Of a DNA stretch of 64,000 nucleotides, positions 34,397 through 49,506 are shown piece after piece (the first letter of the stretch is position 1; the number at the start of each line of letters is the position of its first letter). The stretch is from Spirochaetota bacterium. Its GTDB lineage: Bacteria; Spirochaetota; Brachyspiria; Brachyspirales; JACRPF01. The notes beneath the pieces are model-generated. The model was not told the DNA's origin and did no database searches. It was given only the letters and a program-made list of their open reading frames with translations. The position numbers and the translations under genes were made by a program. The stretch lies in NCBI GenBank assembly GCA_038043445.1, contig JBBTBY010000072.1, positions 29,887 to 93,886 on the forward strand. The letters are read 5' to 3'.

Positions 34397-34524
34397 AAAA
34401 CCACGGAGGACACAGAGAATGCGATGGAGAACATAGAGAATAGTATGGCAGGATTCATCTTAGGGGTAAAAATACAAACTGCCTTCTACGCATTCTCGGC
34501 CTTATCTCCGTGACCTGTGGTTTC
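34397..34524. repeat. 128-bp gene-less mini-cassette bounded by imperfect inverted repeats of the same family that flanks the GxxExxY gene
   Basis: Left arm AAAACCACGGAGGACACAGAGAATGCG (34397-34423). The reverse complement of the right arm (34489-34524) is GAAACCACAGGTCACGGAGATAAGGCCGAGAATGCG. A degenerate tandem copy GGAGAACATAGAGAA sits at 34426-34440. Core CGGAGGACACAGAGAA matches CGGAGGGCGCAGAGAA at 48192-48207 in 14 of 16 positions. Confidence 0.6.
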
Positions 34525-34619
34525 TCTTCATTAACTTAGCGAGTATATGGGGCCGATATTCGCCTTGAAAACCAACACCCTTGTGATATAGTACGATGCA
34601 CATCGCAAGGAGTTCTCAC

Positions 34620-47368: not shown

Positions 47369-47983
47369 TTACTCCGTTTTTGCTGAATTCTTTTCTTCGG
47401 CCTGTAATCGCTCTATTTCTTTGGCCGTCGCCTCGATGCCCGCGAGGTCCTTGTCCGTCGATCGTATGGCTGTATCGGCCTTGGTCCTTTTTTCCTTCGC
47501 TTTTTTAGCGACCACTTGGAATTTCTTCTTTGATTCCTGAAGGAGATCGATGGCCTTGGCATAATTCGTCTCGGATTTGGCTTTGAGCGCCGCATCGTAC
47601 AGCGCCTGCGCCTCGTCGTATTCGGTCTTTACCGCAACGCTCGCCTTGATATCATCGGCCTGTTTCTTCGGCTGATCCGCCTCTTTCTTGGAGTCGGCCG
47701 TAGCAGCCGGAAAACCCTTATCCATGACCAATTGATAGTTCGATAATGCCTTATCGAGCGATTCCTTCGATTTGCCGTTGTCGTTGCTGTAGTATCCCTT
47801 GCCGGCAGTATAATTCGTCTCGGCGGCGATGAATTCGTTCGATGCGTACTTGTCAAGCTTGTACTTCTTAAGCGTATTTCGCCGCTCATTCGCGAGCGAA
47901 AATTCCTTTTCCGGGAGCGCCGCACAGGCGATCATAAGCCCGATAAGGGCAAGCCCGGATAGCATTGCGAGAGTGTATTTCAT
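47369..47983 (-). CDS. helical lipoprotein (DUF4398-like)
   Basis: ATG 47983 preceded by GGAGGAGAG. Lipobox LIGLMIAC. Repeated 'A..Y..A...Y' helical segments resemble the N-terminal region of the downstream LysM protein. Confidence 0.6.
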   Translation of the reverse strand: MKYTLAMLSGLALIGLMIACAALPEKEFSLANERRNTLKKYKLDKYASNEFIAAETNYTAGKGYYSNDNGKSKESLDKALSNYQLVMDKGFPAATADSKKEADQPKKQADDIKASVAVKTEYDEAQALYDAALKAKSETNYAKAIDLLQESKKKFQVVAKKAKEKRTKADTAIRSTDKDLAGIEATAKEIERLQAEEKNSAKTE

Positions 47984-48015: not shown

Positions 48016-48044
48016 ATCCTATCACTCGCGCGCTGAAATGTCAA
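48016..48044 (-). promoter_or_regulatory. putative sigma70-type promoter of the lipoprotein/LysM/cyclophilin operon
   Basis: On the minus strand: TTGACA (48044-48039), 17-nt spacer, TAGGAT (48021-48016). Confidence 0.4.
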
Positions 48045-48170
48045 GAGAAAGACACACTTCCCGCAGGTGAGCTGGCTCCAAACCAGCCGAACCATCGTAC
48101 ACGCAACGCTTAATGAACCGGCGTATGGGTGTCACCCTTCAGGGCTGCGCTTAGGTTGTTGGAATGAAAC

Positions 48171-48210
48171 GAAGATATATCTCGCAGAGGCGCGGAGGGC
48201 GCAGAGAAGA
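48171..48210. repeat. left inverted-repeat arm flanking the GxxExxY gene
   Basis: GAAGATATATCTCGCAGAGGCGCGGAGGGCGCAGAGAAGA. Pairs with the reverse complement of 48849-48882. Contains the core CGGAGGGCGCAGAGAA shared with 34402-34417. Confidence 0.65.
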
Positions 48211-48431
48211 AACTCCTTTTTCTTAAATGTACGCACTCACTCGTCCGATCGGCGCAAGTCGGCATCCATGCCTCGCACCGACTGACACGTCCATGTGTCA
48301 CGGTCAAGTGTAAAAACCACACGCGCCCTTGACCGTAGCGCAGGATGCGCGAGTGATCACGATCCATGGATGGCGATTTGTGCGACGCAAACTCGTTCGT
48401 GAGTATGGGAAAAAGAAAAAGGAGTTTCCCC

Positions 48432-48809
48432 ATGAATCACAACGAAATATCAGGAATAATCATTCAGAAGGCTACCACAATCCATCAATCGCTTGGCCCC
48501 GGGCTGCTAGAATCCGTTTATAAAAACATTCTCATCCATGAGTTGCTTGCCTGCGGCTTACACGCCGAGCCGGAAGTCATGATTCCCGTAAACTACGGCG
48601 GCAAAGTGTTCGAGTTCGGCTTCCGCGCAGACATTATCGTAGAAAATAAAATCATCATAGAAGTTAAGTCTGTAGAGAACGTACAGGCAATGCATATGAA
48701 ACAGCTGCTCACATATCTCAAGCTGACCAAACTTAGACTCGGCCTGCTCCTTAACTTCAACACCGTTCTTCTCAAAGACGGCATAATCCGCATTGTAAAC
48801 GGTCTGTAA
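48432..48809 (+). CDS. GxxExxY protein (PD-(D/E)XK nuclease superfamily, PDDEXK_3-like)
   Basis: ATG 48432 preceded by AAAAAGGAG. LGPGLLESVYKNILIHEL carries the G-x-x-E-x-x-Y signature. FRADIIVENKIIIEVK carries the D...ExK nuclease core. 125 aa. Confidence 0.8.
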   Translation: MNHNEISGIIIQKATTIHQSLGPGLLESVYKNILIHELLACGLHAEPEVMIPVNYGGKVFEFGFRADIIVENKIIIEVKSVENVQAMHMKQLLTYLKLTKLRLGLLLNFNTVLLKDGIIRIVNGL

Positions 48810-48848
48810 AACAGCTATCACGTCGTCACGTAACATTCTTCTTCCTAA

Positions 48849-48882
48849 TTCTCTGCGTCTCTGCGTGATATCTCTTCTCTTC
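48849..48882. repeat. right inverted-repeat arm flanking the GxxExxY gene
   Basis: TTCTCTGCGTCTCTGCGTGATATCTCTTCTCTTC. Its reverse complement GAAGAGAAGAGATATCACGCAGAGACGCAGAGAA aligns with the left arm (GAAGA...ATATC.CGCAGAG...CGCAGAGAA). Confidence 0.65.
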
Positions 48883-49379
48883 GTCTTGCTTCCCGTCGCG
48901 GCTTCCTAGCGGCTATGCCGCCAGCTGCGCCCATGGCCGCACGGCAGTCGTCGCGAGATGCCTCTTCCCAACATCTTTTCTCCTAAATCTTTCCGGCTCC
49001 AAGATCAAATTCGAAAAAACAGTAGGTTCCTACTCTATACGATTTCGCCCTTCCTTCGTATATTCCCACGCATGACCCGCGGAACAGTACGCACAGCGGG
49101 TGTTGAAAACGGAAAACGACAGGAGGACGCCATGAGTTCAACAATACGCGCCCACCCGTAGCGGCGACGAGGCGGTCCAAAGCGGCTTCGGACCTTGTTC
49201 GCTTCAGGTTCGCTTCAGGTTCTATCTCGGTTCGAGGGCGGAAGACGCCTCCCGGCATTGATGATGTATAATATATACACACCTGATGCCGTCGAGTATC
49301 TTCCGCGGCTTTTGAGTGAATACAAGGAGTTTTCAAATGGCCGCACACTCGGCAGAGGTATAAAAAACGCGGAATTGCG

Positions 49380-49407
49380 TTGACATAATCATCGTATTTG
49401 CTATAAT
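49380..49407 (+). promoter_or_regulatory. near-consensus sigma70 promoter of tRNA-Ser
   Basis: TTGACA (49380-49385), 16-nt spacer, TATAAT (49402-49407). The tRNA starts 12 nt downstream. Confidence 0.6.
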
Positions 49408-49418
49408 CCCTGCGACCA

Positions 49419-49506
49419 GGAGAGGTAGCCTAGCTGGTTAAGGCGTCAGTTTGCTAAACTGAAGTGGATTTATTTCCACGCGCGGGTTCAAATCCCGCTC
49501 TCTCCG
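49419..49506 (+). tRNA. tRNA-Ser (anticodon GCT), class II with long variable arm; CCA not encoded
   Basis: Hand-folded. Acceptor stem GGAGAGG/TCTCTCC. D-arm GCCT-AGCTGGTTA-AGGC. Anticodon stem TCAGT/ACTGA with loop TTGCTAA. Variable stem GTGGA/TCCAC. T-arm GCGGG-TTCAAAT-CCCGC. Discriminator G. Confidence 0.9.

Follow-up and report, generated by a model that had tools for sequence, protein, structure and literature searches.

The 64,000-nucleotide stretch of the Spirochaetota contig JBBTBY010000072.1 analysed here (the window) contains a gene for a 125-residue PD-(D/E)XK nuclease of the GxxExxY family (48432-48809, plus strand; PF13366, TIGR04256), which lies between two inverted copies, or arms, of a short repeat at 48171-48210 and 48849-48882, and the same arrangement recurs around genes of this family in many phyla. 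The association suggests that the GxxExxY nucleases and their inverted repeats constitute an undescribed nuclease-plus-repeat selfish system, and the cassette in the window very probably belongs to this conserved association. The favoured reading, the chances of which appear roughly even, is that of a repeat family resembling repetitive extragenic palindromes (REPs) or miniature inverted-repeat transposable elements (MITEs) with a PD-(D/E)XK nuclease as its servicing enzyme; the gene of this enzyme would reside inside one of the copies and be kept translationally quiet.

Conservation of the arms across the GxxExxY family

The loci collected from the gene side, 80 in number, come from GTDB species representatives of more than 12 phyla, including Bacteroidota, Planctomycetota, Cyanobacteria, Acidobacteriota, Verrucomicrobiota, Nitrospirota, Chloroflexota, Ignavibacteriota, Desulfobacterota and several classes of Pseudomonadota, and at nearly all of them arms of the same design adjoin the gene. 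An arm opens with the head (A)TCTC(A/G)C and continues with two to four tandem units of 8-9 bp with the pattern C-R-C-N-R-A-G, such as CGCAAAG, CGCAGAG, CACAGAG, CACGGAG or CGCCAAG. An inverted repeat across the gene scores at least 30 at 52 of 82 loci, compared with about 14-22 in the controls, and three-unit arms occur at a density of 6.5-7 per kb within 100 nt of the gene and about 0.1 per kb beyond 500 nt, an enrichment of about 50-70 times. An arm, the gene and an inverted arm usually follow one another in this order, and the arm tails often come within 0-10 nt of the start or stop codon; across the 52 scoring loci the gap has a median of 25 nt on the ATG side and 14 nt on the stop-codon side, and many loci have gaps of only 0-6 nt. 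Reversed geometry and complete hairpins on either side of the gene are also seen. The possibility raised in the original prediction, that other GxxExxY loci might lack comparable flanks, is thus decisively dismissed, since inverted repeats of the same kind are present across many phyla.

The link is likewise evident when the bracketed genes are considered, as 23 of the 25 open reading frames (ORFs) tightly enclosed by arms belong to the GxxExxY family, which is the only one to recur in this position. Other cargo genes were rejected, the non-GxxExxY ORFs beside arms being diverse or spurious, and no four-helix-bundle family emerged among them. Next, the arm is more conserved than the protein. 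The left arm of the window is 89-93% identical to GxxExxY-flanking arms in Planctomycetota, Bacteroidia (Bacteroidota), Nostoc, Chroococcales and Opitutus, while the protein identity in these cross-phylum comparisons is only 50-57%. Such conservation of a 28-nt non-coding sequence above that of its partner protein is rare and implies a tight protein-DNA co-constraint. The unit type also tracks protein similarity, although weakly (59.6% versus 56.7%, permutation p about 0.002).

The family is large, with 15,484 cluster representatives at 50% identity matching at E ≤ 0.001, and its function is given as unknown in the one survey that lists it (PMC3424549). Full-text literature searches found no paper on the biology of the family, and no description of the nuclease-repeat association was retrieved under GxxExxY, PF13366 or PDDEXK_3 or with the arm sequences, although database family descriptions or subscription journals might hold one; the arm sequences turned up only unrelated eukaryotic primers. 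The link to a specific DNA repeat provides the uncharacterised GxxExxY/PDDEXK_3 family with a testable substrate.

The cassette in the window

The left arm (48171-48210, plus strand) is composed of the head GAAGATATATCTC, three tandem units (CGCAGAG at 48183-48189, CGCGGAG at 48191-48197 and CGCAGAG at 48200-48206) and the tail AAGA. The right arm (48849-48882, minus strand) is an inverted copy of the left one, with the head GATATC..GAAGAG and two CGCAGAG units within 48851-48865, and starts 39 nt past the nuclease stop codon. An inverted-repeat search paired 48166-48197 with 48851-48882 as arms of 32 nt with 81% complementarity, and Smith-Waterman alignment of the left flank with the reverse-complemented right flank gives a score of 34, compared with 20.2 ± 2.0 and a maximum of 28 in 60 dinucleotide shuffles. 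The original prediction had placed the gene between these arms, and both its sequences and its coordinates are borne out, with a score well above that of the shuffles.

The imperfect match of the arms (81%) and the origin of the sequence from a metagenome-assembled genome might speak for a chance likeness or an assembly artefact in a low-complexity region. However, the arm score lies about 7 standard deviations above the shuffles, the locus is present in three independent assemblies (including GCA_964356905.1, a groundwater Spirochaetota metagenome-assembled genome), and about 80 unrelated genomes show the same arrangement; the likelihood of this explanation is negligible and it can be regarded as refuted.

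The same genome has at least three GxxExxY paralogues at unrelated loci, among them paralogous cassettes at the loci designated L004 (79% protein identity) and L008 (75%), and a second spirochaete genome, GCA_016214035.1, carries at least two cassettes, L011 (68%) and L256 (63%). The cassettes in related genomes occupy different loci, and the similarity between the window and L004 sets in abruptly at the left-arm head. A solo CGCAGAG-type arm, CTCGCAGAGCTCGCGGAGTTCGCAGAGAAA, is located at L004 7496-7530, 3 kb from the cassette in that locus, and a short fragment of a CACAAAG-type arm is found at L004 1058-1076, so that this genome carries at least three arm subtypes. A 15-nt sequence at 48953-48967 of the window (minus strand; GCGAGATGCCTCTTC, compared with GAAGATATATCTCGC, 80%) possibly represents a decayed second copy of the arm head; it is weak and may lie outside the element, and in L004 the right end, about 200 nt past the stop codon, is decayed in a comparable manner.

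Gene-less copies of the arms

Searches that started from an arm rather than from the gene were made in public collections with a single arm subtype, CACGCARAGRCGCARAGRCGCARAG, and provided 34 viral-contig and at least 120 metagenome loci with a total of 1.0 Mb. Among the matches listed, a GxxExxY-like gene is present in only 4 of 154 loci, and the 111 evaluable metagenome arms comprise 52 gene-less hairpins with an inverted partner within 300 nt and loops mostly shorter than 100 nt, 47 solo arms, 11 arms with a head-side partner only and 1 with cassette-sized spacing. The neighbours of the solo arms are ordinary or phage genes. In the locus L240 a 73-residue GxxExxY remnant remains in a gene-less hairpin, and the hairpin loop of L176 retains 22 C-terminal GxxExxY codons (E = 1.6e-5), which indicates that at least some of the gene-less copies are internally deleted cassettes. 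In these samples arms are far more common without the gene than with it. They thus form a REP/MITE-like dispersed repeat family in which no gene other than that of the nuclease recurs in association with the arms; the nuclease gene is itself a rare member of the family, but one flanked by arms almost without exception.

The original prediction had allowed that the repeat could be a mere REP-like element unconnected with these genes. The first half of this proposal agrees with the observations, as the arms are dispersed and mostly gene-less, but the second half does not, and the very strong association from gene to repeat means that the dispersal refines the idea of a selfish unit towards a system resembling that of REPs and their associated transposases (REP/RAYT) rather than refutes it.

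Arms are also found in predicted viral contigs (IMG/VR, L092-L125), and none of these arm-bearing contigs has a GxxExxY gene. Arms of the CGCAAAG subtype in these contigs, for example in L101, L105, L116 and L118, are often positioned 5-45 nt upstream of ORFs resembling phage structural or packaging genes. Among 72,556 plasmid records, 8 contain arm-like matches, 7 of them from Nostocales, the chromosomes of which carry GxxExxY cassettes, so that arms and gene occur together at the level of taxa.

The abundance of empty hairpins could also be explained if the repeats spread by other means and the nuclease gene were a free-standing homing parasite that targets empty hairpins for cutting and gains copies in their loops through recombination at the homologous arms. 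PD-(D/E)XK homing endonucleases, such as I-Ssp6803I, do exist, and such a parasite would agree with the position of the gene, which corresponds precisely to that of the loop in a gene-less hairpin, with several paralogues per genome, with the large excess of arms over genes and with the DNA-nuclease fold. However, no other recurrent arm-associated gene that could spread the arms is seen, the loops with gene remnants indicate deletion of the gene from cassettes and not insertion alone, the paralogues in this genome are old, with 75-79% identity, and the conservation of the arms across phyla would be left unexplained. A homing parasite of this kind appears distinctly unlikely. The original prediction had suggested a homing-endonuclease-like unit, and the classical form of this, a gene borne by an intron or intein, is not supported, as there is no intron, Rfam gives no group I or group II match and the ORF is free-standing.

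The GxxExxY nuclease

The protein exceeds the curated cut-offs of both families over its full length, with 128.4 bits for PF13366 (PDDEXK_3; cut-off 22, E = 2e-37, residues 5-121) and 130.5 bits for TIGR04256 (cut-off 35). The signature motif is GLLESVY at residues 24-30, and its Gly24, Glu27 and Tyr30 are intact together with the catalytic residues Asp67, Glu77 and Lys79, and none of these positions varies among 27 aligned homologues from many phyla. The model obtained with AlphaFold2 scores 94 in the predicted local distance difference test (pLDDT) and displays a restriction-endonuclease-like alpha/beta core, for which the best PDB fold matches in Foldseek are the Cas4 protein SSO0001 (E = 1e-4) and lambda exonuclease. 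By sequence no solved structure could be detected, the only hit being a non-significant one to the XisH-like protein 2okf (E = 0.86). Judging from the intact invariant residues and the modelled DNA-nuclease-like fold, the nuclease looks active. Some family members of about 275 residues (P0127-P0132 and others) contain two tandem GxxExxY domains, which suggests that the single-domain protein acts as a dimer.

The predicted fold and catalytic motif are shared with the Cas4/RecB-type and lambda-exonuclease PD-(D/E)XK nucleases, but sequence similarity to any solved structure is absent and, unlike the Cas4/RecB-type nucleases, the GxxExxY protein is a minimal single domain with neither an iron-sulphur cluster motif nor a CRISPR context. 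The cassette encodes no recognised transposase, its only family matches being to PD-(D/E)XK enzymes. An anti-phage defence system was also considered and rejected, the matches in PADLOC being only marginal and partial (best E = 5e-4 over 36 residues).

The leader hairpin and the expression of the nuclease

Between the left arm and the gene is a leader of about 220 nt that folds into a long nested hairpin (48209-48428, plus strand). The outer helix is a perfect duplex of 16 bp (48209-48224 with 48413-48428), followed by a middle helix (48252-48275 with 48360-48383) and a conserved tip (48300-48308 with 48328-48336, GTCAAG..CCCTTGAC). The Shine-Dalgarno sequence AGGAG (48420-48424, plus strand) is located 7 nt 5′ of the ATG and within the 3′ strand of the outer helix, which thus pairs the sequence adjacent to the left arm with the Shine-Dalgarno region. 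The fold energy is -106.7 kcal/mol (z = -4.5). The original prediction had described parts of the leader as degenerate units; these are instead portions of the nested hairpin, whereas the 9-bp hairpin which it had noted is real and corresponds to the conserved tip.

Leaders are present in all four related cassettes (L004, L008, L011 and L256). Four leaders of differing length were each folded separately, and in L004, L011 and L256 the z-scores are -8 to -9 and the Shine-Dalgarno sequence is buried as well. The outer helices differ in sequence while their complementarity is kept (AACTCCTTTTTCTT, ACCTCCATCGTTTT, GCGCCTCCTGTT), which amounts to covariation. The tip, GTCAAGGG..CCCTTGAC, is conserved, and among all fetched sequences its pattern with exact spacing matches only the leaders of the window, L004 and L011; L256 has the same tip with a longer loop. 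No sigma-70-type promoter was found on the plus strand upstream of the nuclease gene and, together with the sequestered Shine-Dalgarno sequence, this makes translation of the nuclease look tightly restrained in this spirochaete lineage.

The leaders raise the question of whether the arms themselves act in the transcript. An RNA-level element similar to the intervening sequence (IVS) of 23S rRNA would have arms that pair around the ORF, with RNase III cutting the stem or the stem blocking translation; the gene-less hairpins would be decayed cassettes serving as terminators or RNA stabilisers, and the role of the nuclease would be unrelated. The architecture does resemble that of the Coxiella IVS, in which excision by RNase III takes out the Shine-Dalgarno sequence (PMC4990558), the cassette arms directly adjoin the start and stop codons, their complementarity is kept by concerted changes, the spirochaete leaders clearly hide the Shine-Dalgarno sequence, and no internal promoter was found. 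However, the arm mismatches show no bias towards G-U over A-C (50 G-U in the sense strand versus 45 A-C), about 40% of the arms (among the matches listed) are solo and thus unable to pair, the unit sequence itself is conserved across phyla beyond what pairing would need, the gene may stand outside the hairpins or in reversed geometry, and none of the 257 loci checked for conserved rRNA motifs lies in rRNA. The lack of a G-U bias argues weakly against selection at the RNA level and, taken with the solo arms and the cross-phylum conservation of the units, favours sequence-specific recognition of DNA over an RNA stem. Arm-to-arm pairing may still have some role in RNA, but an element acting as a whole at this level is unlikely, if worth serious attention. 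Rfam gave no match at the arms or the leader, either for the window at the gathering threshold or for the region and 17 strong loci at permissive E-values.

Mobility and persistence

Past movement of the cassette is indicated by the paralogues at unrelated loci, the differing loci in the related genome, the sharp boundary at the arm head and the arms in viral contigs. The original prediction of a small selfish or mobile unit is accordingly upheld in part, in that the nuclease and its repeats do form a unit and the findings agree with a selfish or once-mobile element with a PD-(D/E)XK enzyme, as judged from the family-wide flanking repeats, the L004 boundary, the varied loci and the gene remnants, but its mobility lacks target-site duplications or a clean filled/empty polymorphism and is further tempered by vertical persistence in Nostoc. 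The original prediction had itself seen no target-site duplications.

In the nearest relatives the neighbour proteins are 82-85% identical and the cassette is absent, but the flanking gene blocks are on different contigs there, so that only one-sided boundaries can be read and the comparison of syntenic loci that had been called for gives no clean presence/absence boundary. As the flanking blocks are not adjacent in these relatives, the cassette is located at a synteny breakpoint. The conserved promoters of the relatives end near 48060 and 49375, leaving about 48060-49375 as DNA unique to the window. On one side the cassette is followed by a lipoprotein gene (47369-47983, minus strand) and on the other by a tRNA-Ser gene (49419-49506). 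The latter, which had been noted as a neighbour of possible relevance, is incidental, and tRNA-linked integration was rejected, with 0 tRNA genes in 60 other loci.

In two Nostoc species a cassette is found at the orthologous locus, with flanks 78-85% identical and the gene 72% identical. Every unit of both arms differs there in the same way (CAGAG/CGGAG versus CAAAG), which indicates concerted evolution of the arms, and the shared locus points to long vertical persistence rather than frequent jumping. Such persistence might also be expected if nothing were mobile and the arms served as arrays of operator type, to which either the GxxExxY protein itself or some host factor binds, be it in autoregulation or in a function across the whole genome, for example the organisation of the nucleoid or processing events at the repeats. 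The high conservation of both the protein and the site, and the solo arms upstream of ordinary genes, would fit such a host-serving regulator. However, the catalytic residues are invariant, which implies that cutting and not binding alone is under selection, related genomes differ in the copy number and location of both genes and arms, viral contigs contain arms as well, and decayed cassettes exist, all of which makes a regulatory role of this sort highly unlikely.

Some further features of the related cassettes were observed. A 22-nt sequence (GGGGCGC.TCCCGCA.GCGACA, hereafter X) abuts the L011 cassette on both sides (L011 3722-3746 and 4379-4400) and is also found at L256 3030-3055; it resembles part of another repeat family. 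The order in L011 (X, inverted arm, arm, leader, gene, X) can be derived by cyclic permutation from that in L256 (arm, leader, gene, X, inverted arm), as would be expected if a circular cassette had integrated or if this were the interior of a tandem dimer. Directly upstream of the L008 cassette (L008 2396-3673) is a gene for a transposase of the IS91 family (Y2), and the L011 cassette has a gene for a Y1 transposase (IS200/RAYT-type) at a distance of 2.5 kb (L011 6886-7644); neither is flanked by arms, and their proximity is therefore probably a coincidence. Downstream of the L008 cassette (L008 4440-4900) is an array of about 450 bp with degenerate repeats of about 40 nt (CCAGTGTACGCTGAACGTACAC...). 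A 128-residue neighbour gene seemingly shared by L004 and L008 was rejected, as the two proteins are unrelated.

A proposed model for the nuclease and its repeats

In the favoured reading, a REP/MITE-like repeat family served by the nuclease, the enzyme would recognise the arm units sequence-specifically as DNA and cut at or near them, and by this cutting it would spread, repair or homogenise the family of arms, those on either side of its own gene included. The role would parallel that of the RAYT (REP-associated tyrosine transposase) enzymes for the REPs and their hairpin-forming doublets (REPINs), with a different enzyme fold. Expression would be held down in most phyla by the arms abutting the start and stop codons, and in this spirochaete lineage by the leader hairpin of about 220 nt, in which the Shine-Dalgarno sequence would pair with the stretch adjoining the left arm.

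Several points weigh against this reading. The anatomy of the cassette, the family-wide association, the excess of gene-less copies, the conservation of the arms between phyla, their concerted change and the intact active site are observed, but binding and cutting of the arms by the nuclease, and the movement or maintenance of the arms that would follow, are inferred, and a nuclease of 125 residues alone cannot explain strand transfer. Near-identical recent copies are not found, the paralogues in this genome being 75-79% identical, and this genome has few arms, with only three sites in the 64-kb window. Neither the 24 well-preserved hairpins nor the inspected cassettes have target-site duplications, the nearest relatives provide no clean filled/empty site, and the persistence in Nostoc is of the same tenor. 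Some loci have the arms reversed, with their heads beside the gene, or both arms upstream (L008, L011), so the cassette geometry is not fixed. The GxxExxY gene is essentially absent from plasmid and phage collections, the samples obtained from the arm side represent one arm subtype and loci rather than whole genomes, and the correlation between protein clade and unit type, besides being weak, is confounded by host phylogeny.

By analogy, the GxxExxY-arm system appears to work most like the REP/REPIN-RAYT systems (Nunvar 2010; Bertels and Rainey 2011, PMC3116915; PMC5581495), in which short extragenic palindromes greatly outnumber a single enzyme gene, as the arms do in the samples obtained from the arm side, and in which the enzyme gene is likewise flanked by inverted repeat copies. 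Hairpin doublets and singlets, the absence of target-site duplications and the possibility of long vertical persistence are also common to both. However, the defining features of REP-RAYT are lacking, since RAYT is a Y1 (HUH) transposase of the IS200/IS605 type and the enzyme here is a PD-(D/E)XK nuclease, and since RAYT is encoded by one gene per genome and the nuclease by several paralogues. In addition, a REP is a single imperfect hairpin with a GTAG head, in contrast to the arms built as tandem arrays of 8-9-bp units; REPs are lineage-specific, whereas the GxxExxY arms are about 90% conserved across phyla; and, unlike in REP-RAYT, the arms abut the ORF. If the nuclease does service the repeats, it would provide an independent second enzyme-plus-repeat partnership beside REP-RAYT that spans many phyla.

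Similar principles are known from insertion sequences. Insertion sequences have MITE derivatives, and fold-back inhibition of transposase translation is known from IS10 and others. As in insertion sequences and MITEs, terminal inverted repeats here surround an enzyme gene and gene-less derivatives arise by internal deletion, and as in elements of the IS10 type the ribosome-binding site is hidden by a hairpin that uses repeat-adjacent sequence. Unlike insertion sequences, the cassette has no DDE, serine or tyrosine transposase and no target-site duplications, and its arms are arrays of short units conserved between phyla.

The 23S rRNA IVS with an S23p four-helix-bundle ORF, known from Coxiella and Leptospira (PMC4990558), is also a small ORF within terminal inverted repeats of about 28 bp. 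In Coxiella the 28-bp inverted-repeat stem is cut by RNase III, and three tandem heptamers precede the S23p start codon (PMC4990558). Tandem heptamers between the stem and the start codon, and a Shine-Dalgarno region in or beside the stem, have their likeness in the cassette, and in both cases the origin and mobility are unexplained, the IVS having long been suspected to be selfish. In contrast, the IVS is found inside rRNA and the cassette is not, rRNA being absent from the window and conserved rRNA motifs from the 257 loci; the ORF families differ, as do the units (GACAGAT in the IVS and CRCNRAG in the arms), and no S23p-type ORFs adjoining these arms were found. The shared architecture may nevertheless have implications for how ORF-carrying rRNA intervening sequences arose.

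A bolder interpretation, which is tentative and somewhat less than evenly probable, would regard the GxxExxY gene and its CRCNRAG-unit arms as an unrecognised pan-bacterial replicator system, an analogue of REPIN-RAYT with a PD-(D/E)XK nuclease and a recognition sequence about 90% identical from spirochaetes to cyanobacteria, of which the ORF-bearing 23S rRNA intervening sequences are perhaps a related offshoot. In practical terms, the arms can be recognised as a repeat at which assemblies break and which yields spurious small ORFs.

A second arm subtype and other features of the window

A gene-less palindromic element, to which no strand is assigned, occupies 34397-34529 of the window. Its left arm, ACCACGGAGGACACAGAGAA, is at 34400-34419 and is followed by degenerate units, and the right arm is at 34505-34523. 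The recurrence of the core CGGAGGRCRCAGAGAA that had been noted at 34402-34417 is real, but its position is 34404-34419, two bases away; the window has three matches with up to 2 mismatches, compared with 0.17 expected. The inverted repeat, also claimed before, is weak when taken alone (score 20 versus 14.5 ± 2.2 in shuffles). The same subtype, ACCACGGAG/CACAGAG, however, forms a gene-less hairpin elsewhere in this genome (L008 1176-1250) and brackets GxxExxY genes in other phyla (L077 and L090; Flavobacteriales, Zetaproteobacteria), and judging from these sequence matches the 34.4-kb site is a genuine arm of a second subtype.

The two genes next to the window cassette have promoters of recognisable type. 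That of the tRNA-Ser gene (TTGACA-16-TATAAT, 49380-49407) is perfect and conserved in the relative L253, and that of the lipoprotein gene (TTGACA-17-TAGGAT, 48016-48044, minus strand) is conserved in L246 and L249. The segment of about 400 nt between the cassette and the tRNA-Ser promoter (48968-49375) is apparently non-coding and missing from the nearest relatives, and contains two tandem copies of the 11-mer GTTCGCTTCAG (49197-49218) and an imperfect hairpin of 21 nt (49238-49258 with 49286-49306). Finally, the Flavobacteriales locus L090 has an S-adenosylmethionine (SAM) riboswitch (RF00162, 62 bits) at positions 54-187, upstream of a methionine-related neighbour gene and unrelated to the cassette.

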